Assembly (NCBI GenBank): GCA_035994985.1
Contig: DASYKZ010000013.1
Span: 1,834-65,833 of the forward strand
Direction: 5' to 3'
Length of the DNA: 64,000 nucleotides
From: Minisyncoccota bacterium
GTDB lineage: Bacteria; Patescibacteriota; Minisyncoccia; Phycocordibacterales; UBA9973
The position numbers were made by a program, and so were the translations under genes. Under the pieces are notes generated by a model. The model was not told the DNA's origin. It worked only from the letters and a program-made list of their open reading frames with translations, and made no database searches. Shown in pieces: positions 3,473 to 35,034 of the stretch; position 1 is the stretch's first letter; every line of letters starts with the position of its first letter.

Positions 3473-5215
3473 ATGCAAATTTTTTATCATTATTTGAAAA
3501 AATACTGGAAGCTTTGCGCGCTTGTACTTGTTCTTGCGCTGATTAACCAGTTCTTCTCTTTGCTTGAGCCATATATCACCCAACTAATTATCGACAGGTA
3601 CGCCACTCATTTTACTTCGCTTACCAAATCTCAATTTTTAAACGGTGTCGGGCTGCTTATCCTCGCTTTTATTGGCACTGCTCTCATTTCGCGGATCGCG
3701 AAGAACTTTCAGGACTACTATTTAAATACCATCAGCCAGCGTTCTGGCGCAGACATGTATCGGGAGGGCGTAAAACATTCGCTTGCTCTTCCATACGGTA
3801 TTTTTGAAGATGAGCGAAGCGGGGAAACGCTGGGCAAGCTCCAGAAGGCAAGACAAGACACAGAAGCACTCATGGTGGCTATCGTAAATACTGTTTTCAT
3901 CTCTCTTGTCATTTTTATCTTCATCGCTATTTATTCTGCGACGATTTATTGGGCAATTCCGATTGTATTCTTCGCAATGGTGTTTATTATCGGCGGCGTC
4001 AGCCTGCTTATGTCCAAACGAATCAAGAGTATCCAAAACGTAATTGTAGCCGAGACGACAGCGCTCGCTGGCTCAACGACTGAATCGCTTCGCAATATCG
4101 AACTAGTGAAATCTCTCGGTTTGACCGGCCAAGAAGTGGAACGCTTAAATACTACAACAAAAAAAATTCTTAAGCTGGAATTAAAAAAGCTCCGCTATCT
4201 TCGCAGCCTGGACTTCGTACAAGGGACGATTACTAATGCCATACGCGCAGGCATGATTTTCTTTCTTTTATACCTGATTTACAATAGGACTATTACCATC
4301 GGCCAATATTTCTCGCTTAATATTTATTCCTTCTTCTTATTCTTTCCGTTGCAACAAGTTGCGCCTTTTATTTCAATGTACCGCCAGGCTGAGGCTTCGC
4401 TTGCCAATTACAGCAAACTCATGGAAATGCCACCGGAGCCAACGCCAGCTACGCCGAACCCAATTGGCGAAGTGAAAAACCTTGAATTCAAGAATGTTTC
4501 TTTTGGCTATAAATCCACAAATGAAAACGCCCTTTCTAATATTTTTTATAAAATCTCGCGCGGCAACACGATTGCCTTCGTCGGCCCATCCGGTTCTGGC
4601 AAGACATCCTTGGTAAAGTTATTAGTAGGACTGTATGTGCCGACCGAAGGGGAAATATATTTCAACGGTTTTCCATTTGAATCTATTGACAAAGAAGAGC
4701 TCCGCCGGCAAATCGGCTTCGTGACGCAAGACACGCAGCTTTTTGCGGGTACCATACGAGAGAACCTACTTTTCGTAAAGCCGGACGCGACAGACCCCGA
4801 GTGCCTAGATGCCTTGAATAAAGCGCAATGCCAAAACTTACTGGAGAGGGGAGGCAAGGGGCTCGATACTGTTATCGGCGAGGGGGGAGTAAAAGTTTCC
4901 GGCGGGGAAAAGCAGAGGCTCTCCATTGCCCGCGCGCTTCTGCGCCAGCCGTCAATTTTGATATTTGATGAAGCGACGTCGTCCCTCGATTCTTTGACCG
5001 AAGAAGAAATCACCAAAACCATCCGCGACGTGTCTACAGGCCATTCGCGCATTACTATACTCATCGCCCACAGGCTCTCGACGATTATGCACGCAGACAC
5101 TATTTATGTACTTGAAAAAGGCAAAATGACTGAATCAGGTTCGCACGCGGAACTTCTCGGCAAACAAGGGCTGTATTCAGCAATGTGGAGGCAGCAAATA
5201 GGCGAAAGAGCGTAA
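3473..5215 (+). CDS. ABC transporter, fused permease/ATP-binding protein (type I exporter, MsbA-like)
   Basis: 6 N-terminal TM helices; Walker A GPSGSGKTS, signature VSGGEKQRLSIARAL, Walker B ILIFDEATSSLD. Confidence 0.9.
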   Translation: MQIFYHYLKKYWKLCALVLVLALINQFFSLLEPYITQLIIDRYATHFTSLTKSQFLNGVGLLILAFIGTALISRIAKNFQDYYLNTISQRSGADMYREGVKHSLALPYGIFEDERSGETLGKLQKARQDTEALMVAIVNTVFISLVIFIFIAIYSATIYWAIPIVFFAMVFIIGGVSLLMSKRIKSIQNVIVAETTALAGSTTESLRNIELVKSLGLTGQEVERLNTTTKKILKLELKKLRYLRSLDFVQGTITNAIRAGMIFFLLYLIYNRTITIGQYFSLNIYSFFLFFPLQQVAPFISMYRQAEASLANYSKLMEMPPEPTPATPNPIGEVKNLEFKNVSFGYKSTNENALSNIFYKISRGNTIAFVGPSGSGKTSLVKLLVGLYVPTEGEIYFNGFPFESIDKEELRRQIGFVTQDTQLFAGTIRENLLFVKPDATDPECLDALNKAQCQNLLERGGKGLDTVIGEGGVKVSGGEKQRLSIARALLRQPSILIFDEATSSLDSLTEEEITKTIRDVSTGHSRITILIAHRLSTIMHADTIYVLEKGKMTESGSHAELLGKQGLYSAMWRQQIGERA

Positions 5216-5273
5216 GCAGGCGCAAAATAGCTTAAAAAAATTCTGAAAAAGTGTTACACCCTGTAATAGAGTT

Positions 5274-5301
5274 TTGCAAAAACTTCACTACGGGGTACAA
5301 T
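5274..5301 (+). promoter_or_regulatory. sigma70-like promoter TTGCAA-N16-TACAAT placed 7 nt upstream of ATG 5309 (leaderless configuration)
   Basis: TTGCAA 5274-5279, TACAAT 5296-5301. Confidence 0.45.
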
Positions 5302-5308
5302 AGAGTCA

Positions 5309-6508
5309 ATGTTAAAGGAGGGACAACTAAGGGTGACATACGGGGGCTGGTACCAGCGGACGACGCTTCATTTGAGTGAAGTGCATTTTTTGTTTATGGG
5401 CGGCGAGTCAAAATTAAATTTATCAAAGGAAAAACTGAAAAAACTTCACAAAAGCCTTCATCTTGTAAAAGTTTCCAGAGAGCCGGGATATTTTGAATAC
5501 GTAAGGGCGGTTACTGAGTCCGGCATTGAAATCCGCTACTATGAAGACGGCCTGTATACGCTCGAGATTATTACTGATAATGCGGAAGACATAGACAAGA
5601 CACATCAAACCCTGGAAGATTATTTCCAAACCAGGTTACAGCCTGCTTTATCTTATATTTTCTCCCGCGGTGCGCCGACGCCAAAACAGCTTGCTAACAT
5701 CAAGACGGTTCATCCGGTAGTGGTAAGTTTTCGAGAGAAAGAAAATAGCAAAGAGGGTAATACTTTTAAGGTTGATGAATCAATTTTTGGAGAAGTGTAT
5801 TCTAAAATCACCAGCAACAATCTTACTGTATACAAAACCCCGAAGTATATTTTTATATCTGCTTCCACTGGCTCTACTAAATCCTTAGTAGATTTAATCG
5901 GTATGCAAATTTTCTTCCGTGAATTCAAAGACCAACTGGAAAAATATTTACATATCCACCGTACCATCTGGGAAGAAATCTCTACTATCAAAGAAGCGAA
6001 AGTGATTAAGGGCAAAGACGTGGAGACTCTCCGCGGAAAGCTCGATACGTATCAGAAGACCATCAATCTCATCAGCAACAGAATCAATCAGATGGGTTCA
6101 TATGTGAGTACTCGTTCAAGCATCGCGAAACATTTGGAAATTGAAAAAGATCTCGTGCAGCTTTTCGAATATAAATTTGAGACTCTTACAGATACGCTGA
6201 CCTATATAAAAGAAATATGGAAAATGACCGGAGACTATCTTGCATCGGCTATTGCCAATATGGTGGAAATAAAAAATCAGAGTACAAGCAACAATTTGAA
6301 ATCTCTCCAGACTATTACCAGTATCGGAGTCATTTCCGGAGTGCTTGGCTACTTGTCAGCCAGCAAGCTGCCCTCCATAAGCTTTTCTGGGCTTATATAT
6401 TTTATAATCCTGTTCGGCATGACCTGGCTCATGAATTATGTTATAATCAGAAAATACAAGAACAAGGAATATAGCTTGAAATTTGGCGAACGGGCTAAAA
6501 ATCTCTAA
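5309..6508 (+). CDS. hypothetical membrane protein (large cytoplasmic N-domain + two C-terminal TM helices; CorA-like topology, GMN motif degenerate to GMT)
   Basis: C-terminal ...IGVISGVLGYL...IILFGMTWLMNYVIIRKYKNKEY; alternative SD-led GTG start at 5332. Confidence 0.4.
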   Translation: MLKEGQLRVTYGGWYQRTTLHLSEVHFLFMGGESKLNLSKEKLKKLHKSLHLVKVSREPGYFEYVRAVTESGIEIRYYEDGLYTLEIITDNAEDIDKTHQTLEDYFQTRLQPALSYIFSRGAPTPKQLANIKTVHPVVVSFREKENSKEGNTFKVDESIFGEVYSKITSNNLTVYKTPKYIFISASTGSTKSLVDLIGMQIFFREFKDQLEKYLHIHRTIWEEISTIKEAKVIKGKDVETLRGKLDTYQKTINLISNRINQMGSYVSTRSSIAKHLEIEKDLVQLFEYKFETLTDTLTYIKEIWKMTGDYLASAIANMVEIKNQSTSNNLKSLQTITSIGVISGVLGYLSASKLPSISFSGLIYFIILFGMTWLMNYVIIRKYKNKEYSLKFGERAKNL

Positions 6509-6527: not shown

Positions 6528-7697
6528 GTGAAACAAAAGACAATACATGCGCTAAAAAATATATTTGTAATTAGCCATTTTGGCTTTTTTTCTGTATTCT
6601 TCGTTTTACTGGTAATTGTATTTTTTACTTTTCCGGAAATTTTCACGGGGGCTGTATCCACGACCAATCAAGGAGCCATGAATAAGGGAGACCAAAAGAA
6701 GGAGGAAAGGGTTAAAATAGCCGATATACAGCCCCTAGATAAAGCCGCCTATGATAAAAAAATGCTGGAACTGGCCAACAATCCGGTTCCTAAAGGTCCA
6801 ACCACAAAAATTGTTAAAGACAAAAAGACCGGAGTAGAAACTGTCGTGACTCTGCCTGCTCCTGTTGCAGCCCCGGTTATCTGGCCGGCAAAAACTGTGT
6901 ACCCGAACGACGGGGCTCTCTTGCCGTTCAACCGCATAATTGCTTACTACGGAAACTTGTATTCCACAAAAATGGGAGTGCTGGGTCAATACCCTGAGGC
7001 TGAAATGCTGCAAAGGCTGGATAAAGAAGTAAAAAAATGGGAACTCGCAGACCCAAGCACTCCCGTCATCCCCGCGCTTCACTACATCGCCGTGGTCGCG
7101 CAGGGGAGCGAAGGGAAAGACGGAAAGTACAGAGCGCGCATGCCGGGCACGGAAATAGACAAAGTTCTTGCCATGGCGGCAAAAATAAATGCAATTGTTT
7201 TTCTGGATATTCAAGTCGGCTTTTCAAACGTGCAGAGTGAAGTTCCCCTGCTGGAAAAATATTTAAAGCTTCCAAACGTGCACTTAGGCCTTGACCCGGA
7301 ATTTTCCATGAAGAGCGGCATCAGGCCGGGGAAGATTGTCGGCACCATGGATGCCAGTGATGTAAACTTTGCCGCAAATTTTTTGGCGAAAGTTGTGAAG
7401 GAAAACAATCTTCCTCCTAAAATTCTTATCGTTCACCGCTATACCGGAAAGATGGTGACAAATTATAAAGAAATCAAGCCATTGCCGGAAGTGCAGATTG
7501 TAATAAATATGGATGGCTGGGGCGGGGGAGCGAAAAAAATCGGCACGTACAAGAACTTTATATATCCCCAGCCGGTTCAATTTACAGGTTTTAAATTGTT
7601 TTACAAAAACGATATTTTAACCCCAGGAACTGCAATGCTGACCCCGAAAGAAGTTTTAGGCTTAAACCCAAGGCCTATTTATATACAGTATCAGTAA
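6528..7697 (+). CDS. hypothetical membrane-anchored protein (possible TIM-barrel glycoside-hydrolase-like fold)
   Basis: N-terminal TM helix, GTG start; no recognisable catalytic signature. Confidence 0.35.
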   Translation: MKQKTIHALKNIFVISHFGFFSVFFVLLVIVFFTFPEIFTGAVSTTNQGAMNKGDQKKEERVKIADIQPLDKAAYDKKMLELANNPVPKGPTTKIVKDKKTGVETVVTLPAPVAAPVIWPAKTVYPNDGALLPFNRIIAYYGNLYSTKMGVLGQYPEAEMLQRLDKEVKKWELADPSTPVIPALHYIAVVAQGSEGKDGKYRARMPGTEIDKVLAMAAKINAIVFLDIQVGFSNVQSEVPLLEKYLKLPNVHLGLDPEFSMKSGIRPGKIVGTMDASDVNFAANFLAKVVKENNLPPKILIVHRYTGKMVTNYKEIKPLPEVQIVINMDGWGGGAKKIGTYKNFIYPQPVQFTGFKLFYKNDILTPGTAMLTPKEVLGLNPRPIYIQYQ

Positions 7698-7775
7698 TAT
7701 CCACAGTACTCTATGCTTGTTTTATGGTATAATAAGCAGGTTAGTTAGGAATTATTAGTCTAATATAAAAATAAT

Positions 7776-8258
7776 ATGAATAAAACAGTTATAAGCATCA
7801 TTGTTTTAGTTTTAGTAATCGGAGGATTGTTTTTTGTTTTAAAAAGCAAGAAATCAGAAGCGCCTGTAGTAGATGAAAATCAAGTTGGTACCACTACCGA
7901 TGCCGAGGGGAACATTATTCCTATAAGTACAGTCACTACAACGACCACTACGGAGCAAACCACTACCATAGATGAGGGAGTGAAAGAATTCACAGTGACA
8001 GGCAAGAATTTTTCTTTTAGCCCGTCCACTATCACGGTAAACAAGGGAGATAAAGTAAAAATAACGTTTAAGAACACAGAAGGGATGCATAATTTCATCA
8101 TTGATGAGTTTGGCGCTGCTACCAAGACATCTCAGTCTCCGGATACAGAAGTCATAGAATTTACCGCAACCAAGACAGGGAGCTTTGAATACTACTGCTC
8201 TGTCGGTAATCACCGGGCGATGGGCATGAAGGGAAGTCTCGTAGTTAAATCCCAGTAG
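7776..8258 (+). CDS. cupredoxin (plastocyanin/amicyanin-like blue copper protein), membrane anchored
   Basis: Type-1 copper ligand pattern H(MHNF)...C-x3-H-x2-M (YYCSVGNHRAMGM); N-terminal TM anchor. Confidence 0.7.
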   Translation: MNKTVISIIVLVLVIGGLFFVLKSKKSEAPVVDENQVGTTTDAEGNIIPISTVTTTTTTEQTTTIDEGVKEFTVTGKNFSFSPSTITVNKGDKVKITFKNTEGMHNFIIDEFGAATKTSQSPDTEVIEFTATKTGSFEYYCSVGNHRAMGMKGSLVVKSQ

Positions 8259-8298
8259 TAGAGCAGAGCTCACTACGGGACAAGTAAGCAAAAACAAA

Positions 8299-8670
8299 AT
8301 GAAAGAAAAAAGAAGTTTTTCTATTCGGGCCCGCATCCAAAGCTCCACTCATGCGTGGCGGGGGCTTGGTGTTTTGCTTAAAACCAGCCACAATATGTGG
8401 GCGGGGATAGTTACTGCGTTGCTTGCCGTATACTTAGGCTTCATTTTAAATATCTCCGCCACAGAGTGGCTGTTCTTGATATTCTCTATTTTCCTGGTGT
8501 TTGTGACCGAAGCCCTGAACTCAGCCATAGAAATAGATATAGACCTCACCTCGCCGGAAACTCATCCCTATGCGCGCGACACCAAGGACGTAGCCGCAGC
8601 GGCAGTATTATTGACCACTCTGCTCTCACTTATAGTGGCGTTCATAATTTTCTTGCCAAAGATTCTGTAA
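8299..8670 (+). CDS. dgkA: diacylglycerol kinase / undecaprenol kinase family (DgkA)
   Basis: 123 aa, 3 TM, conserved E-x-x-N-S-A-I-E motif (TEALNSAIEID). Confidence 0.7.
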   Translation: MKEKRSFSIRARIQSSTHAWRGLGVLLKTSHNMWAGIVTALLAVYLGFILNISATEWLFLIFSIFLVFVTEALNSAIEIDIDLTSPETHPYARDTKDVAAAAVLLTTLLSLIVAFIIFLPKIL

Positions 8671-8687
8671 ATTGATAAAATTAAGCT

Positions 8688-9131
8688 ATGAATAACAATG
8701 CAAAAATCTTTTTGGGAGTAATAGGTATTTTAATTTTAGGCACGATTGCGACTGTAATTTTGCGCGGCGGTGCAACCGCGCCGGCAGGGCCGGGGAAATA
8801 CGATGAATTCGCGACTTGCCTAAAAGACAAAGGCGCGGTATTTTACGGGGCTTTCTGGTGTCCGCATTGCCAGGCTGAAAAGAAGCTCTTTGGCTCTTCA
8901 GTAAAGCTTTTGCCGTACGTAGAGTGTTCTACAGCTGATGCAAGCGGACAGACGCAAATCTGCATAGATAAAGGCGTAAAGAGCTATCCTACATGGGAAT
9001 TTGCCGATATGTCCCGTCTTACCGGAGAAATTCCATTGCAACAACTGGCAGATAAAACTTCCTGCGTCCTTCCGGGCGGCGAAGCAGCTCCCGCACCCGT
9101 AGAATCAGGAGCAAGCACTACCGTACAATAA
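8688..9131 (+). CDS. thioredoxin-like (DsbA/BdbD-like) protein with CxxC (WCPHC), membrane anchored
   Basis: N-terminal TM; CPHC active-site motif. Confidence 0.6.
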   Translation: MNNNAKIFLGVIGILILGTIATVILRGGATAPAGPGKYDEFATCLKDKGAVFYGAFWCPHCQAEKKLFGSSVKLLPYVECSTADASGQTQICIDKGVKSYPTWEFADMSRLTGEIPLQQLADKTSCVLPGGEAAPAPVESGASTTVQ

Positions 9132-9139
9132 ATAAAATT

Positions 9140-9682
9140 ATGAGTTTTGAAAATGTCCACTATGTAAATATGTTTCTTGGGCTTGGCGCTATTCTGCTCC
9201 AGATACTTTCCGTACTTGTCCTCTTAATGCTGGTGTTTTGGCGGAAAGGAAATCCAATTCTCCGATTCATAAAAAATAATTTTCTCCCAATCGGTTTTCT
9301 GATTACCTTTGGAGCTGTGCTCACTTCTTTCTTTTACTCTGATATTATGGGCTACGTGCCGTGCATTTATTGCTGGTGGGACAGGGTGCTTATTTTCCCG
9401 CAAGCTGCCATCTTCGGTATTGCGTGGCTGAGGAAGGATAGAAATGCTTTTTGGTACTCTCTTGTGTTGACAGTCTTTGGCCTATACAAATCTCTGCAGC
9501 ACCTCCGTCTATATTATTACGGCGAAGGAGGCGCTCCTTGCGACGCTTCCGGTGTTTCCTGCGTGCAGAGGCTGGTAAGTGAGTTTGGCGGATATATTTC
9601 CATCCCCATGCTTGCCTTTACGGGATTTTTCGCCCTCGCAACTCTTTTATTAGTGGTTCATTTTTACAAAAAAGAAAATTAA
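9140..9682 (+). CDS. disulfide bond formation protein B-like (DsbB/BdbC family)
   Basis: 4 TM helices; first loop CIYC pair, second loop C-x6-C pair (CDASGVSC). Confidence 0.6.
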   Translation: MSFENVHYVNMFLGLGAILLQILSVLVLLMLVFWRKGNPILRFIKNNFLPIGFLITFGAVLTSFFYSDIMGYVPCIYCWWDRVLIFPQAAIFGIAWLRKDRNAFWYSLVLTVFGLYKSLQHLRLYYYGEGGAPCDASGVSCVQRLVSEFGGYISIPMLAFTGFFALATLLLVVHFYKKEN

Positions 9683-28380: not shown

Positions 28381-29430
28381 ATGTTAACAAAAACCGAAAT
28401 ATTAAAAATAGCGAAAGAGAAGGATAAACTTTACTCTAAGGATTTAGTGTTGCAGTTTAAGGTCTCTAGGCAATATGTTAATCTTTTGATATCCATGCTA
28501 GTCGGAGAGCGTAAACTTGTAAAAATCGGCTCTACAAGAAAAGCATTTTACGTTCTTCCTGAATACGCACAAAAACATCAAGAAATATTTCCGCTTATAT
28601 ATTCTAAATCATTTAAAAATGAGGGACTTGAAGAGCATAGAGTTATAAGTCAAATAGAAGAGACTTTCCCGACATTAAAAAATCTTCCAGAAAACATACG
28701 TAGTATTTTTACCTATGCGTTTTCAGAAATGTTTAACAATGCAATTGAGCACTCCAAATCTGTGCGTATAGGGGTAGAAGTATCTATCCCTAAAAAAGAA
28801 CTTTCTTTCATTATACAAGACTCAGGCATAGGCGTTTTTCGTAACGTTATGAAGGAGCGAGGTCTAAAGTCTGAAATAGAAGCAATTCAAGATATTTTAA
28901 AAGGAAAGACGACAACTATGCCCAAATCTCATTCAGGTGAAGGTATATTTTTTACGTCAAAGTCTGGAGATGTTTTTATTCTCGATAGTTTTGGTTATCA
29001 ATTAATTGTAAATAATAAGACACCAGATGTTTTCATAAAGACTGTTAGAAAAATAAAAAGAGGCACTCGGGTAATGTTTAAAATCTCTGCTTTATCAGAT
29101 AGACATTTACAAGATGTTTTTAAAAAATATACAAACCTAGATGATAAAAGTGATTATGGTTTTGACAAGACGGAAATAAGAGTGAAACTTTATACTATTG
29201 GCGGTGTCCATATTTCTCGTTCACAAGCACGGCGAGTCTTAGACGGTCTTGAAAAATTCAAGATAATTGTTTTTGATTTTGAGCAAGTTTCTACGGTAGG
29301 ACAGGCATTTGCTGATGAAGTTTTTAGAGTTTTTCATCATAAATATCCAAAGATTAAGCTTGAAGTAGAAAATATGAATGAGGGGGTAAAATTTATGATT
29401 GAAAGAGCACAGAATGAAGCTTCCATATAA
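28381..29430 (+). CDS. wHTH - GHKL (histidine-kinase-like) ATPase - STAS-like (DUF4325-like) fusion protein
   Basis: N-box FNNAIEHS, G1 DSGIGV, G2 GEGIFF; C-terminal STAS-like segment; N-terminal winged helix. Confidence 0.6.
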   Translation: MLTKTEILKIAKEKDKLYSKDLVLQFKVSRQYVNLLISMLVGERKLVKIGSTRKAFYVLPEYAQKHQEIFPLIYSKSFKNEGLEEHRVISQIEETFPTLKNLPENIRSIFTYAFSEMFNNAIEHSKSVRIGVEVSIPKKELSFIIQDSGIGVFRNVMKERGLKSEIEAIQDILKGKTTTMPKSHSGEGIFFTSKSGDVFILDSFGYQLIVNNKTPDVFIKTVRKIKRGTRVMFKISALSDRHLQDVFKKYTNLDDKSDYGFDKTEIRVKLYTIGGVHISRSQARRVLDGLEKFKIIVFDFEQVSTVGQAFADEVFRVFHHKYPKIKLEVENMNEGVKFMIERAQNEASI

Positions 29431-29447
29431 GTATTAAAATTATAAAC

Positions 29448-30074
29448 ATGCCACACATTTTATTACATATTACTGACCCGGAAAAGATTTACTCAGAAAT
29501 TTCAAAAGCCCTTTTACCGCACAAGGAAAAAGAGGTTGCTTCCATGGTCTTTATCGTCGAAGGTTCTCTCGAAAATCCACGAATCGCCATACGATATCCC
29601 GGCAGAAAATTAGTAAAGAGAAACCTCACCTATCCGAGGGCAAACTCATCCCTATGGGCAAATCTTCTTGATTTTGAAGTGATTCCTTTCAATCAAGGTG
29701 AACAAGGAAACTCTAAAATTTTTACGTACGCAAATTTACTTAAAGACTTTGAGCTGTATAAAAAAGATAATAATCTTTTTTGGCAGATGCTGGAGGAACT
29801 ATATAATAAAAATACGATTACCAAAGAGCCACCAAAGCTTGAGGGTATAGACTCAAGACAATTTTTAGAAATGCTCAAATGGATGTGGCTTCAGGAAGAT
29901 TTAAATTACAAATTGTCTTGGCAGGAAGTCGGCTCTGAAATACCATATAGACTTCAAAATAAAACAGGAGGTCTTACCAGCAAGGGTGCCGGACGTGCAA
30001 AATTTTTTGCCGCTCTTGTTCTACTTAAAAACAATTACTTTGATTATAATACTGTTAGAAAAATAATACCTTAA
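29448..30074 (+). CDS. hypothetical protein, 208 aa (candidate restriction endonuclease partner of convergent MTase)
   Basis: Stop codon overlaps stop of convergent MTase gene by 4 nt; no recognisable motif. Confidence 0.45.
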   Translation: MPHILLHITDPEKIYSEISKALLPHKEKEVASMVFIVEGSLENPRIAIRYPGRKLVKRNLTYPRANSSLWANLLDFEVIPFNQGEQGNSKIFTYANLLKDFELYKKDNNLFWQMLEELYNKNTITKEPPKLEGIDSRQFLEMLKWMWLQEDLNYKLSWQEVGSEIPYRLQNKTGGLTSKGAGRAKFFAALVLLKNNYFDYNTVRKIIP

Positions 30075-31171
30075 GCTATTTTCTTGCCGCGCGGCCCTAG
30101 TTTATGAGTTTCGTCTATATAGCCCTTTTTTAAACGGTCATTTATGATGTCGCAATATTTTTTATCAATTTCTGCAGATATAAAGTTGCGATTCAGTTTT
30201 TTACAAACATCTATTTCTGCACCGCTCCCGCCAAAGAGAACAAAGACTGTATCTTTTGGCTTCGTCGCCCCTTTGATTAGCATCTCCGTCAATTTCTGAG
30301 GAATTTGGCAGGCGTGATTAGTTTTTTCTTTACTTACATTTTTTACCAGATTAAATTCAAACCAAGAGTACGGCATCCTGCCCTTGGAGCCATTTGCTAT
30401 ATTTTGCTTTACTCTTTTGTCCGTCGGATTTTTATAAGGAAGCGCCACAGCATCTTTGAAAAATTTATTGTGAGCACTTTTCCGTACGTGTAAAATACTT
30501 CGATGAGCTGTGGTAAATCTCCTCGGCGTATGTCCTACGTTTGTATTGTACACCCAGACATATTCATTGATATTTGGAAAAAGTAAATCAAGATACTTCA
30601 CCCGCAAGTGCGCATTCTGCTTGGGGTAATTGAGCATAAAAAGATTACCATCGGGCTTGAGGACACGCATAGACTCTTTAGTTAACTCTATATACCAGTT
30701 TATATAATCTTCAAATTTTCTAGTGTAATTATTTTCATTGTACTTTATGCCTACATTGTAATCAGGATCACCAAAAATCATATCTACACTGTTGTCTGGT
30801 AAATTTTTTAAAACGTGCATGACATCTCCGTTGTAAACTTTGTTCAAGTAATCAGATACTTTACCTTTTTCTTTCAAGTTATTTTTAACGGGCAGTATGA
30901 AGCCTGGAGTAACCATAGTATCTTGCTGTGACATTAAGTCCTTCATTGATTTCAATAGACGAATTGAGTGTTTTACACCTTTTTCTTTTACCAGATAGCC
31001 TTTCCTTTCTAAATAATCTACGTGTTGGTGCGCAGTAGGGATAGATACATTAAAATGACCTGCTATGTCACTTAAAGCAGGGGAATAGCTGTTTTTTTGT
31101 TGGAATTTATCCAAGTAATCAAAAAGCTGCGCTTGTTTTTTTGTAAGTTGTGAGTTTAATATTTTTGACAT
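30071..31171 (-). CDS. beta-class N4-cytosine/N6-adenine DNA methyltransferase with N-terminal LexA-like wHTH
   Basis: Motif IV variant MIFGDPDYN precedes motif I VLFGGSGAE (beta permutation); HTH SDIAGHFNVSIPTAHQHVDYLERKGYL; alternative upstream start 31228. Confidence 0.8.
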   Translation of the reverse strand: MSKILNSQLTKKQAQLFDYLDKFQQKNSYSPALSDIAGHFNVSIPTAHQHVDYLERKGYLVKEKGVKHSIRLLKSMKDLMSQQDTMVTPGFILPVKNNLKEKGKVSDYLNKVYNGDVMHVLKNLPDNSVDMIFGDPDYNVGIKYNENNYTRKFEDYINWYIELTKESMRVLKPDGNLFMLNYPKQNAHLRVKYLDLLFPNINEYVWVYNTNVGHTPRRFTTAHRSILHVRKSAHNKFFKDAVALPYKNPTDKRVKQNIANGSKGRMPYSWFEFNLVKNVSKEKTNHACQIPQKLTEMLIKGATKPKDTVFVLFGGSGAEIDVCKKLNRNFISAEIDKKYCDIINDRLKKGYIDETHKLGPRGKKIA

Positions 31172-31177
31172 ATATGT

Positions 31178-31227
31178 ACTGTATATTATAATACCTAAAC
31201 ATAACCTAAACAAGAGGTTTATCCACA
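31178..31227 (-). promoter_or_regulatory. MTase promoter/operator: TATAAT -10, direct repeats GTTTAGGT x2, and a perfect DnaA box TTATCCACA (31219-31227)
   Basis: Minus-strand reading: ttgtggataaacctcttGTTTAGGTtatGTTTAGGTatTATAATatacagtacatataATG. Confidence 0.45.
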
Positions 31228-31331
31228 AGAACAGGATTAAAAAGCACTGAAGCTCAATTAAGATGGTTGCGGTAGGGGGGGATTGAAGTTATAGAGTTTT
31301 TTAAGTATAATTCATAAAGCGAAATAATTTA

Positions 31332-33185
31332 ATGCGATATATAGGAAATAAGACAAGACTAATTAACAACATATCTGATTTTGTTAAAGATAATAATATA
31401 AAAGGTAAATCTTTTTGTGATATTTTTTCGGGCACAGGCAGCGTGAGTGATTTTTTTAAATCAGATTATAAGATAATAGCGAACGATTTCTTATTTTGTT
31501 CAGCAGTAATAACAAGAGCCAAAATATATAATAACAAGGAACCGAAATTTAAAAAATTTGTAGATAAATATGGGATAGACCCATTTAATTATTTTAGAAA
31601 TAAAACACATATTTACAAAAAACATTATTTTGTTACAAATAACTATTCACCAAAAGCAAATCGTAAATTTTTTTCCGAAGAAAACTCTATTGCGATAGAC
31701 TCGATTAGAATTGAAATTGAAGAAATTTATAAAAATTTTATTTTTGATGAGAAAGAGTATTATTTTTTGTTGGGAAGTTTGCTGGAAAGTGTAATGAGTT
31801 TTTCTAATACAAGTGGTACCTATGAAGCATTTCTCAAAACATGGGACAAAAGAGCTCTAAAAAAGTTTTTTTTATCTCCAATTAAAATCAATGAAACTAA
31901 GGTTGTAAATGTTGATAATAAAGTATATAACGAAGACGCTAATTCTTTAATTAGAAAAATTGGTGGCGATGTGCTGTACATAGACCCCCCTTACACAATT
32001 ACAGAATATTCATCTGCTTATCATGTATTAGAAACTATTGCTCGTTATGATTATCCTGAAGTAGCTGGAATTACTGCACGCAGAATAGATAATGATAAAA
32101 AATCATCTTATACAAGAGTAAAGACTGCACTCATGTCTTTCGAAGATTTAATAAGACAAGCTCAGTTTAACGATATAATCATAAGTTATAGCAATCAGTC
32201 AATTATACCCTTAAAAGAATTAGAAAAAATGTTATCTCGTTATTCTATAGATGGAAAAATTAACAAAAAACTTATTAATTATAGAGAGTATAGAAACATC
32301 CGCTCAAGCAAAAAAACTCCAGGATTGTTTGAGGTTTTAATTCATATTAAGAAGAACAATGAAATTATTAAGTCTCCCTTGAATTATTCTGGAAGCAAAG
32401 ATAATTTAATGAATCAAATTCATAAGTACTTACCGGAACATATAACCACTTTTGTTGATGTGATGGGAGGAGCTTTTAATGTAGGGGTAAATATTATTGC
32501 TGATGAAGTTATTTATAATGAGTACAATCCTTTTGTTTATGAATTGATAAAAAAATTATTGAAATCAAATTCAAAAGAAACTATAAAATATATAGAAAAT
32601 AAAATTAGTATACATTCCTTAAAGAAAGGTAACTCACTAAAGTATAATATTTTCAGAAATATATATAACAAATCTAAAAAATCGTTAGATTTGTTTATTC
32701 TAACAACCTTTTGTTTTCAAAATCAAATACGGTTTAATTCGTCTCTAGATTTCAATACACCAGTTGGGAATTGTGCGTATAACTCGACTATTCGAGATAG
32801 GCTTGAAAAATTCAAACCAAAAACAAAAAAAATAAGATTTTTAAATGAAGATTTTTTGAAGATAAATTTTAATAAATACGACAAAGAAATATTATTTTAT
32901 TTTGATCCACCTTATTTTATTACTAATGCAACCTATAATGATGGAAAAAGGGGATTTAATGGTTGGGATGCAGATTTAGAGGCAAAAATGTTAGAATACA
33001 TTTCAGCTGTTCATAATGGCGGTTTCAGATTTATTCTATCAAACATTTTATACCATAAGAATAAAGAAAATCATTTATTATTAGAATGGATAGAGTCACA
33101 CAATTTTAACATTGTTGAATTACAACACCCCACTCGAAAGGAGGTTTTAATTACTAACTATAATTTAAATAATGGTATAAGATAA
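31332..33185 (+). CDS. fused tandem Dam-like (D12-class) N6-adenine DNA methyltransferase (two complete MTase domains in one polypeptide)
   Basis: Domain 1: YIGNKTRL..FSGTGSV and IDPPY; domain 2: YSGSKDNL..MGGAFNVG and FDPPY. Confidence 0.8.
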   Translation: MRYIGNKTRLINNISDFVKDNNIKGKSFCDIFSGTGSVSDFFKSDYKIIANDFLFCSAVITRAKIYNNKEPKFKKFVDKYGIDPFNYFRNKTHIYKKHYFVTNNYSPKANRKFFSEENSIAIDSIRIEIEEIYKNFIFDEKEYYFLLGSLLESVMSFSNTSGTYEAFLKTWDKRALKKFFLSPIKINETKVVNVDNKVYNEDANSLIRKIGGDVLYIDPPYTITEYSSAYHVLETIARYDYPEVAGITARRIDNDKKSSYTRVKTALMSFEDLIRQAQFNDIIISYSNQSIIPLKELEKMLSRYSIDGKINKKLINYREYRNIRSSKKTPGLFEVLIHIKKNNEIIKSPLNYSGSKDNLMNQIHKYLPEHITTFVDVMGGAFNVGVNIIADEVIYNEYNPFVYELIKKLLKSNSKETIKYIENKISIHSLKKGNSLKYNIFRNIYNKSKKSLDLFILTTFCFQNQIRFNSSLDFNTPVGNCAYNSTIRDRLEKFKPKTKKIRFLNEDFLKINFNKYDKEILFYFDPPYFITNATYNDGKRGFNGWDADLEAKMLEYISAVHNGGFRFILSNILYHKNKENHLLLEWIESHNFNIVELQHPTRKEVLITNYNLNNGIR

Positions 33186-33190
33186 CAAAT

Positions 33191-34552
33191 ATGGAAGAAA
33201 ATATACTTAAAATAAATAAAAAATTTTACGACTCACTAAGTGAAGGTGATAACAAGAAAGTATTAAAAATTTATGGATATAACTCGCCAGACGAATTCTT
33301 ATCTGGCGTAATTAGTAAGTTGAATGAGGAATACAGTTTCTTGAAAATAAATAAGTTTAATTTTTTATCTACTGAGGAGATCGTCGACTATCATACATAC
33401 AACGGATTTATTAGTGGTAAATTTGTTGATTATGATTTAATCACAGTATCCTTTACTACAATAAAAGGTAAAGAAGGAAATGTGTTTATGAGTCAGCAAG
33501 TTATGCCGATGATAACGAGTAAGTTAAAAAATGATAAAAAATTTATATTGAGCAATAGAGTAAAGAAAATATGCTTACTAACAACACATAAATCTGATAT
33601 TTACTCACCTGACAAGAATATAATAACTGATAGTGGTATTTCAAATATTCAGATGAGTGTTAAATATATAAATACGATAGGCTTTGACATAGTTGATATT
33701 TTCCATATTAAGAACCTAAGCACGAAATCAAGATACTATAATATCGATGAATTAATTGATCACTCAAATTATTTACAGAAAAAAAATCCAACAAACTCAC
33801 AATTTCAACAAATAACAAAAAAAGATTATGTATATAGTGCTGATTTTGAAAATGAACCAGTTGGACAAGAAGTTAAATTTTTTGCCTTAAAATTATATGC
33901 AGCAGTTATTTTATTAAAAGGCAGAAATATCCATATTGATAATGCATTACAGAAAAGCAATGATATTACTCTGCAGGTTTTAAATGATTTTATTCAATAT
34001 CTCTTAAACATTGATATATCTTTATACAATATATTCAAGGATTTATCCGAAGAAATAGAATATGAGACAGAAATTGACACAAGTACAATGCCTGAAGAAG
34101 CAGTTAGACCTAAAAAAGATGATTCCATGCCTGGTCATAAACAACAACCAATATATAGCTTTAATGCAAAAGGACGAAAAATATACAAAACACAAAGAAT
34201 ATTCAAAAAGAATGCATTTGAAATTCATGGTTATTTTTGTGCTTGCCATGAAGAAAAACATTATTATTTCACATCTGAGGCAACTAATAAAAAATACGTT
34301 GAGGGTCATCACATGATACCAATGGAGTTCCAAGATCAATATTGGAAAGATAGGCAAATTAATCTTGATTGCACTATTAATTTAATTCCACTTTGCTCTC
34401 ATTGTCATGGGAAAATACATAAGTCCATTAAACCTGAACGAGTGCAGATAATCACAGAAGTTTATAATAAACACAAAGATCAACTACTTACAATAGATAG
34501 TAAACTTACATTTGATAAGTTCGCAGAACTCTATAACGTCTATATTTACTAA
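33191..34552 (+). CDS. putative restriction endonuclease with C-terminal HNH nuclease domain
   Basis: YVEGHHMIP...NLIPLCSHCHGKIH HNH motif; large N-terminal putative recognition domain; immediately downstream of MTase. Confidence 0.7.
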   Translation: MEENILKINKKFYDSLSEGDNKKVLKIYGYNSPDEFLSGVISKLNEEYSFLKINKFNFLSTEEIVDYHTYNGFISGKFVDYDLITVSFTTIKGKEGNVFMSQQVMPMITSKLKNDKKFILSNRVKKICLLTTHKSDIYSPDKNIITDSGISNIQMSVKYINTIGFDIVDIFHIKNLSTKSRYYNIDELIDHSNYLQKKNPTNSQFQQITKKDYVYSADFENEPVGQEVKFFALKLYAAVILLKGRNIHIDNALQKSNDITLQVLNDFIQYLLNIDISLYNIFKDLSEEIEYETEIDTSTMPEEAVRPKKDDSMPGHKQQPIYSFNAKGRKIYKTQRIFKKNAFEIHGYFCACHEEKHYYFTSEATNKKYVEGHHMIPMEFQDQYWKDRQINLDCTINLIPLCSHCHGKIHKSIKPERVQIITEVYNKHKDQLLTIDSKLTFDKFAELYNVYIY

Positions 34553-34638: not shown

Positions 34639-35034
34639 ATGTTATTGAATAGAATTTTGGATTTCAATATACTTGTACTGCGGAAGAAAAAGTATACACG
34701 GTGGGACTATAAAAAATACAAGGAGGAAGCTCGGGCTTTGGTTCGTGAGAAGATTGCCCGACTGAATGCGCACTATGGTTTCAAAGTAGGGAAGGTGGCG
34801 ATACGGGATACAAAGTCCCGCTGGGGCAGCTGCTCAAAGCAGGGGAATTTGAATTTCAATTATAAAATTTTATTTCTTCCGTCGCATATTGCCGACTATA
34901 TTATTGCGCACGAATTGTGCCATTTGAAGGAATTTAATCATTCTGTAAACTTTTGGAACTTGGTCAATGAGGTGGCACCAAATCACAAGGCTATCCGGGC
35001 CGAACTCAAGCGGACTGCGCATCTTTACCGATAA
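34639..35034 (+). CDS. YgjP/DUF45 family (M48-like zinc metallohydrolase), short/N-terminally truncated
   Basis: WGSCS..., HELCHLKEFNHSVNFW motif; in-frame stop 4 codons upstream of ATG. Confidence 0.55.
   Translation: MLLNRILDFNILVLRKKKYTRWDYKKYKEEARALVREKIARLNAHYGFKVGKVAIRDTKSRWGSCSKQGNLNFNYKILFLPSHIADYIIAHELCHLKEFNHSVNFWNLVNEVAPNHKAIRAELKRTAHLYR

Follow-up and report, generated by a model that had tools for sequence, protein, structure and literature searches.

A tandem D12 adenine methylase and a reader-HNH protein: a likely Type IIS-like restriction-modification operon in a Candidatus Paceibacterota genome

In a stretch of 64,000 nucleotides (nt) from a Candidatus Paceibacterota metagenome-assembled genome (MAG), hereafter the window, two co-directional open reading frames (ORFs) on the + strand encode proteins of 617 and 453 amino acids (aa), 5 nt apart (Table 1). 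The first is a tandem D12 methylase. The second (GenBank HEV7702463.1) is a putative restriction endonuclease in which an N-terminal domain probably related to LlaI.R1, hereafter the reader, precedes a C-terminal HNH module. We consider it likely that the two genes form a Type II (Type IIS-like) restriction-modification (R-M) operon that this genome acquired horizontally. The acquisition is indicated by base composition, because GC content falls in three levels, from 42.5% in the window outside the island to 34.2% in the region at 28.3–31.2 kb and 27.3% in the gene pair, which a first-pass annotation had already described as very poor in GC (~28%). The island was probably put together in two steps. 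Border scans found no tRNA, flanking repeat, tandem repeat or Rfam family or element at its edges. The promoter-like site ahead of the methylase gene is a pattern match to a consensus that may not be that of the host phylum.

The 617-aa protein contains two stretches matching PF02086 (MethyltransfD12, the D12-class N6-adenine methyltransferases). Scanned apart against this profile, for which the cut-off is 22 bits, residues 1–340 scored 128.8 bits and residues 341–617 scored 81.8 bits, and each half spans profile positions 1–248 of 253. Two complete Dam-like D12 domains in a single polypeptide are also what the first-pass annotation had read here, and the motifs that it quoted, FSGTGSV and a DPPY in both domains, were found where it had placed them. 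YxGxK-type motifs occur as well, RYIGNKTR in the N domain and LNYSGSKD in the C domain. Across 29 homologues, down to 53% identity, the following residues are invariant: (i) G5, K7, D30, F32, G34, D218, P220 and Y221 in the N domain; and (ii) Y352, G354, K356, F374, D376, G379, G380 and D525-P526-P527-Y528 in the C domain. Thus, neither methylase domain is degenerate, a possibility that the annotation had itself raised, since both keep their catalytic and S-adenosylmethionine-binding residues.

The C domain can be aligned along its whole length with T4 Dam (1yfj, E 5e-26), DPPY on DPPY, and passes the NCBIfam model TIGR00571 dam (121.9 bits, cut-off 114.85). The N domain is a more divergent D12 member, for which sequence comparison turned up no solved structure. 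Likeness between the two halves is confined to the motifs, which argues for an old fusion of two different enzymes and against a recent duplication. The whole protein matches the PADLOC Type II methyltransferase model PDLC03287 (residues 1–611 against positions 1–642 of 646, E 3e-204) and has more than 2,583 relatives. Judged by its sequence, it belongs to the known M.FokI/M.BtsCI/M.LlaI tandem family and is unremarkable there: M.FokI, M.BtsCI, M.StsI and M.LlaI are likewise single chains of ~610–650 aa with two D12 domains, each with its own FxGxG and DPPY. M.BtsCI consists of two fused methylases for the two strands and is 62% identical to M.FokI and 48% to M.StsI; the BtsCI and FokI nucleases are unrelated (PMC2831314). 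By analogy with these enzymes, each domain of the window's methylase would methylate adenine on one strand of an asymmetric site. GGATG specificity is not to be assumed for it, since the methylase that served as proxy for M.FokI, the neighbour of a FokI_C nuclease, is only 36% identical to it, and the methylase of a LlaI locus ~40%.

We analysed the 453-aa protein with an alignment of 32 homologues, A1. Its HNH motif, EGHHMIP...NLIPLCSHCHGKIH, occupies residues 371–410, and C350, C352, H357, H373, H374, N397, C402, C405, H406 and H410 are invariant in A1. When the family profile was compared with the HNH domain of EcoKMcrA (PDB 6ghc, E 8e-4), the zinc cysteines and the HH...N...H...H pattern aligned, and the C-terminal HNH of the first-pass annotation thereby keeps its metal-binding and catalytic residues. 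Foldseek matched the C-terminal module solely to HNH domains in the PDB (McrA, at probability 0.99, ScoMcrA, IscB and Cas9), and the module also matches PHROG HNH families. Taken alone, the protein falls below the Pfam gathering thresholds (HNH_2, 15.7 bits vs 21; HNH, 10 bits vs 21.4). An HNH_2 or HNH match was present in 31 of the 32 family members (E up to 1; best 3.5e-6 for HNH_2 and 3.2e-4 for HNH), and the more distant relative P0168 scores 37.6 bits. Because of the sub-threshold score, the HNH assignment is drawn from the family profile, the motif and the fold, and on these grounds the C-terminal module is a predicted McrA-like HNH nuclease whose catalytic and zinc ligands are intact.

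The AlphaFold2 (AF2) model of the full protein (mean predicted local distance difference test (pLDDT) 89, predicted template modelling score (pTM) 0.89) consists of a well-folded alpha/beta domain at residues 1–278, a low-confidence linker at ~279–315 and the C-terminal module at 316–453, with one HNH active site per chain. Recognition and cleavage modules are separable, as seen both in this two-module model and in natural domain swapping: ~1,700 clusters share the HNH module alone (profile positions ~250–447) with other N-terminal domains ahead of it, and the plasmid proteins that carry it include ones annotated as DUF3578-domain proteins. HNH-module-only proteins were also observed in Bacteroidales and Alphaproteobacteria MAGs (loci L027, L029, L030 and L033, at ~4000–6200 in each, and partly L032). 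There the nuclease gene is followed by two separate D12 methylase genes, the C-domain-like one first and the N-domain-like one second; in L027, L029, L030 and L033 this amounts to the fused methylase in split and permuted form, accompanied by yet another HNH nuclease.

Table 1. Features of the methylase-nuclease locus (window coordinates).
Feature	Position	Strand	Basis
Promoter-like site TTGAAG-17-TATAAT	31283..31311	+	Consensus scan, 10/12 matches; ends 20 nt before methylase start codon
Tandem N6-adenine DNA methyltransferase gene, 617 aa	31332..33185	+	ORF, two PF02086 stretches, PDLC03287 match
N-terminal D12 methyltransferase domain, aa 1-295	31332..32216	+	PF02086 128.8 bits; motifs conserved in 29 homologues
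N domain motif I DIFSGTGSV	31419-31445	+	Sequence
N domain DPPY	31983-31994	+	Sequence
C-terminal D12 (T4 Dam-like) methyltransferase domain, aa 347-617	32370..33182	+	PF02086, TIGR00571, 1yfj
C domain motif I FVDVMGGAFNVG	32451-32486	+	Sequence
C domain DPPY	32904-32915	+	Sequence
Putative restriction endonuclease gene, 453 aa	33191..34552	+	ORF; starts 5 nt past methylase stop codon
Reader domain, LlaI.R1-like, aa 1-278	33191..34024	+	AF2 pLDDT mostly >90; hhalign to LlaI.R1 family
Acidic, poorly conserved linker, aa 279-315	34025..34135	+	Block pLDDT 59-63; gapped, variable in A1
HNH nuclease module, aa 316-453	34136..34549	+	EcoKMcrA profile match, Foldseek, PHROG HNH families, invariant ligands
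HNH core CxC...HH...N...CxxCH...H	34238-34420	+	Invariant in A1

What does the N-terminal domain recognize? Residues 1–278 match nothing among the Pfam, NCBIfam and PADLOC models. Searched against 1.84 billion cluster representatives, the family profile recovered 24 clusters at E < 1e-30. A reader without an HNH module was found in P0170 (583 aa) and P0176 (668 aa), where it is fused to a McrB-like AAA_5 domain; their genes sit between a tandem D12 methylase (60% and 53–54% identical to that of the window) and a McrC/RE_LlaJI nuclease. A third reader-AAA+ fusion is encoded by the Lactobacillus amylovorus plasmid p2_CACC736. This protein of 590 aa matches the reader profile at E 7e-13, continues with a GAPGTGKS P-loop, and its gene is flanked on one side by that of a methylase 45% identical to the window's and on the other by that of a "LlaJI family restriction endonuclease". 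In the plasmid record (NZ_CP104881.1; L034 and L013), the 590-aa gene spans the circular origin and is missing from the gene table. With this gene restored, the operon of methylase, reader-motor and LlaJI-type nuclease is complete in a cultured strain.

The LlaI family offers a relative for the reader. LlaI of the Lactococcus lactis plasmid pTR2030 comprises C, M, the R1 reader, the McrB-like R2 motor and the McrC-like R3 nuclease, and we drew an LlaI.R1 family from a pTR2030-like plasmid for profile-profile comparison (hhalign). The reader aligned with this family at E 8.6e-5 and 60% probability over 235 collinear columns, which is the whole reader domain. A local re-run with the reader domains only plus the Lactobacillus protein gave E 3.4e-5 and 72% over 153 columns. 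Identity in the profile alignment is 17%, and neither BLASTP nor the A1 profile gave a significant match to the single LlaI.R1 sequence. The two families share the signature F-x5-K-x(1-2)-G-x(0-1)-N-x4-Q-x3-P and G-(Q/S)-x2-K-F, and in their AF2 models strands and helices follow the same order throughout, LlaI.R1 having two extra insertions (~residues 80–99 and 240–265). The residues best conserved in the reader, Q102, Q226 and K229, align with Q126, S267 and K270 of LlaI.R1, and two of them, Q102 and K229, do not vary even across the wide alignment. In LlaI.R1 these residues belong to the basic "patch 3" of the proposed DNA-binding face, according to a September 2026 preprint that reports the structure of LlaI.R1 and its binding to non-methylated lambda DNA, the LlaI target sequence being still unknown (bioRxiv 10.64898/2026.08.31.748284). 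Thus, on profile and model comparisons, the reader is probably a distant homologue of LlaI.R1.

Since domain 1 of LlaI.R1 is ERCC4-like, a PD-(D/E)XK site in the reader was also considered and rejected, there being hardly any invariant acidic residue: the close family has E187 alone, and the wider alignment has none. We therefore treat the reader as a binding domain and not as a second nuclease.

Methylase and nuclease stay together across distant genomes. Full-length homologues of the 453-aa protein, 32–67% identical, occur in Paceibacterota, in other Patescibacteria, in a Flavobacteriaceae MAG and in gut Clostridiales/Bacilli contigs, where they are abundant (32–33% identity over the full length, E 2e-72). 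A tandem D12 methylase, 54–76% identical to that of the window, lies directly upstream at every distinct locus examined that carries a full-length nuclease (L001/L022, L003/L021, L004-L009 and L020, from three phyla), with a gap of 0–15 nt or a short overlap between the genes. The A1 locus search itself found three full-length loci among species representatives. Within the flanks shown, the neighbouring genes are unrelated from locus to locus and the two genes remain together and intact, which argues for a mobile, self-contained R-M module. In the Flavobacteriaceae locus (L003), a controller-like 64-aa HTH_3 gene lies upstream.

Methylases 53–76% identical to that of the window precede either the reader-HNH protein or a reader-AAA_5 protein plus McrC/RE_LlaJI. 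Because these related methylases share the reader while the effector differs, the reader travels with the methylase. An LlaI.R1-like reader is encoded directly downstream of a tandem D12 methylase in the window, in L016, and in fused form in L010, L011 and the L. amylovorus plasmid. L016 carries the LlaI R1/R2/R3 genes with a tandem methylase ~40% identical to that of the window. At lower methylase identity (≤36%), the nucleases beside the tandem methylase are others: FokI_C, MAG4270 and an unrelated HNH protein. The FokI C-terminal-domain nuclease accompanies a 36%-identical Lactococcus plasmid methylase, and a "MAG4270 family" enzyme is another tandem-D12 partner, in a plasmid record. A single family for all "tandem methylase plus HNH" pairs is refuted by the Fructilactobacillus plasmid pLS1, where the HNH protein of 381 aa encoded beside a methylase of 36% identity has no similarity to the window nuclease.

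These patterns bear on how the reader evolves. Residues 1–278 may be a portable, methylation-sensitive reader that co-evolves with FokI/LlaI-type tandem methylases and has been swapped among three effector forms, namely the free R1 subunit of LlaI, the fusion to a McrB-like motor and the fusion to HNH; we hold this broader view with slightly more doubt than confidence. In the original LlaI arrangement, R1, R2 and R3 are separate proteins after the tandem methylase, and the reader-AAA+ fusions followed by a McrC/LlaJI nuclease are intermediates. The window likewise has a tandem D12 methylase followed by a reader but, unlike LlaI, fuses the reader straight to HNH, with neither AAA+ motor nor McrC-like nuclease. 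None of the window ORFs around the pair matched AAA_5, McrBC or RE_LlaJI, the next downstream gene being a YgjP-like peptidase. With no motor and a direct HNH fusion, cleavage should need no nucleotide hydrolysis or translocation. The LlaI system of L016 (plasmid pUCCL629C, a pTR2030-like Lactococcus plasmid, positions 6538–9208) itself appears decayed: several short annotated ORFs stand in place of the tandem methylase and R1 is shortened to 252 aa, vs 331 aa in intact homologues, whereas R2, R3 and the downstream AbiA look intact.

How would such an operon work? By analogy with M.FokI and M.BtsCI, the 617-aa fusion would shield host DNA by methylating adenine in both strands of a short asymmetric site, one domain per strand. 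The LlaI.R1-like reader of the 453-aa protein would bind the same site when it is unmethylated, as we infer from its co-inheritance with the methylase across effectors and from the DNA binding of LlaI.R1. The flexible acidic linker would tether the McrA-type HNH module (a beta-beta-alpha-metal fold with Cys4 zinc), which would then cut nearby, probably at a fixed offset and with no nucleotide hydrolysis. Since there is one active site per chain, a double-strand break would take two molecules or two sequential nicks. Cleavage outside the asymmetric site, in the manner of Type IIS enzymes, is thus suggested by analogy, and the adjacency of the two genes, the separable modules and the domain swapping all support, at the level of sequence, the Type IIS-like R-M reading of the first-pass annotation.

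Among characterised systems, HpyAV/Hin4II, in which an HNH Type IIS enzyme cutting CCTTC at 6/5 is encoded after a fused methylase (PMC2816704), is by analogy the functionally closest. In both cases methylase and nuclease genes are co-directional and in that order, the methylase is a fused two-domain protein, the nuclease (~420 aa in HpyAV) has a C-terminal HNH, and in HpyAV too recognition and cleavage functions are separate (PMC2816704). The likeness is one of function and layout: M.HpyAV fuses a C5-cytosine to an N6-adenine methylase whereas the window has two D12 adenine domains, and the HpyAV HNH was modelled on colicin E9 whereas that of the window is McrA-like with Cys4 zinc. FokI offers a similar layout of N-terminal recognition module, linker, C-terminal non-specific nuclease with one active site and tandem D12 methylase. 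It differs in its nuclease module, which in the window is HNH; the window protein gave no match to a Pfam FokI domain. For FokI, two studies describe a double-strand cut made by the single active site with a recruited second monomer (PMC2673415, PMC3273807). The first-pass annotation had likened the nuclease to HphI/MnlI, and here the architecture holds, but the relatives that the searches brought up were LlaI.R1 in the case of the reader and McrA-type HNH modules in that of the nuclease. HphI and MnlI are absent from the PDB, Pfam, NCBIfam and PADLOC matches, no comparison having been aimed at the R.HphI or R.MnlI sequences.

Several alternatives to a Type IIS-like operon were weighed. Because T4 Dam, to which the C domain is similar, has the palindrome GATC as its target, and because many HNH restriction enzymes are Type IIP (PMC4081073), the system could instead be Type IIP-like, cutting within a symmetric or degenerate site, with methylase domains that are redundant or differ in preference; the compact AF2 model (pTM 0.89) would agree with this. 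We find it unlikely, since the methylase domains have diverged beyond the motifs yet remain strictly conserved, as in M.BtsCI and M.FokI (PMC2831314), the reader and the nuclease are distinct, separable parts with a variable linker between them, and the reader is a single chain without internal symmetry.

It is very unlikely that the HNH protein is insufficient alone, whether as a strand nickase or as a partner-dependent subunit like LlaI.R1 with R2/R3, the pair then being incomplete or a decaying remnant. A single active site per chain would be compatible with such dependence, as would the action of the reader's relatives in multi-protein McrBC-type machines, and a conserved third gene was not sought beyond the flanks shown. 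Yet the flanks differ completely between loci while the two genes stay together and intact, both ORFs are full length with all catalytic residues, and FokI, also with one active site, cuts both strands via a second monomer in the studies cited above.

Least probable of the three, and likewise very unlikely, is a modification-dependent Type IV McrA-like nuclease that merely lies beside an unrelated methylase: the HNH module is nearest EcoKMcrA and ScoMcrA, recurs in the DUF3578-annotated plasmid proteins and has earned the protein the automatic JGI name "5-methylcytosine-specific restriction protein A", but the genes are coupled across a 5-nt gap and conserved as a pair across phyla, cutting the very DNA that the methylase encoded upstream has modified would kill the cell, no known modified-base reader resembles the N-terminal domain (Pfam gave no match), and the reader is probably related to that of LlaI, a methylase-protected system whose R1 binds non-methylated DNA. 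EcoKMcrA and ScoMcrA provide the best sequence and fold matches for residues ~326–420, with zinc cysteines arranged as CxC in the window protein vs CxxC in McrA, followed by CxxC in both. They differ in being modification-dependent, with modified-base or phosphorothioate readers and no cognate methylase, whereas the window nuclease has an N-terminal domain unlike the McrA readers and a methylase always adjacent. The JGI name is probably over-extended from the HNH module alone.

Word avoidance was tried as a route to the recognition site and rejected. Among asymmetric 5-mers, none stands out in the 57 kb beyond the island (GGATG/CATCC observed/expected 0.83, rank 33 of 512; GCATC 1.09), and the only strong signal, palindromic GATC, does not point to the tandem-methylase/HNH system. 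GATC has 29 sites in the ~57 kb outside the island (window 1–28000 and 35101–64000), that is, 58 counted on both strands vs 287 expected (observed/expected 0.20, z -16). GGCC (0.68) and TCGA (0.64) are mildly depleted, and GGATC shows no further depletion. The GATC depletion suggests that the lineage was long exposed to a GATC-specific nuclease, and it is unexplained by the tandem-methylase/HNH system.

The genes around the pair include a possible second R-M pair upstream, on both strands (29448–31228). Its minus-strand gene encodes a LexA-type helix-turn-helix (HTH) fused to a beta-class N6_N4 methyltransferase (PF01555; PADLOC PDLC03337, E 2.5e-118), with a gene-caller start at ~31171 and 366 aa. 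Convergent with it, with a 4-nt overlap, is a 208-aa ORF on the + strand (29448–30074) that matches no model of Pfam, NCBIfam, PADLOC or PHROGs and whose only occurrences found are on contigs of the same genome; it could be an orphan-family restriction enzyme. A perfect promoter consensus, TTGACA-16-TATAAT, on the + strand (31165–31192; window 31157–31192) overlaps the palindrome ACATATATGT (31168–31177) and also the likely start codon of the minus-strand HTH-methylase gene. The palindrome region lies where the two methylase genes diverge and may serve as an operator for the LexA-like HTH.

A 349-aa protein encoded at the low-GC margin of the island (28381–29430, +) shows weak matches to the histidine-kinase-type ATPase models HATPase_c and HATPase_c_2, both under the cut-offs, and ends in a STAS-like DUF4325 domain. 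PHROG 3364, of unknown function, matches it, but no PADLOC defence model does. Just after the nuclease gene, a 131-aa ORF (34639–35034, +) has a match to the YgjP-like metallopeptidase profile that is limited to its C-terminal half (106–206 of 207); the ORF is either a natural short form or truncated by the island insertion.

The methylase half of the operon, and the logic of a methylase plus a nuclease, are entirely conventional. In NCBI, UniRef and JGI, the nuclease family goes under "hypothetical", "uncharacterized", "HNH endonuclease" or a McrA label only, and judged on these names the combination of an LlaI.R1-like reader with HNH is a new architecture within a known kind of system. If our reading is correct, the nuclease would be the founding example of an uncharacterised restriction-enzyme family and, on the broader view of a portable reader, a new prototype of single-chain Type IIS enzyme, in a family that ranges over candidate-phyla-radiation bacteria, Flavobacteriaceae and common gut Firmicutes. 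The interest is modest and specialist, with a concrete experimental pay-off, and DNA technology could gain a new Type IIS specificity. Compared with a three-protein motor complex, a single-chain HNH version is far easier to assay and, on the broader view, would provide a simple in vitro route to the LlaI-type recognition sequence class. A classical two-gene R-M system would then be tied by homology to LlaI/McrBC-type machines and, on that view, would be a natural example of conversion between restriction driven by nucleoside triphosphates and restriction independent of them.

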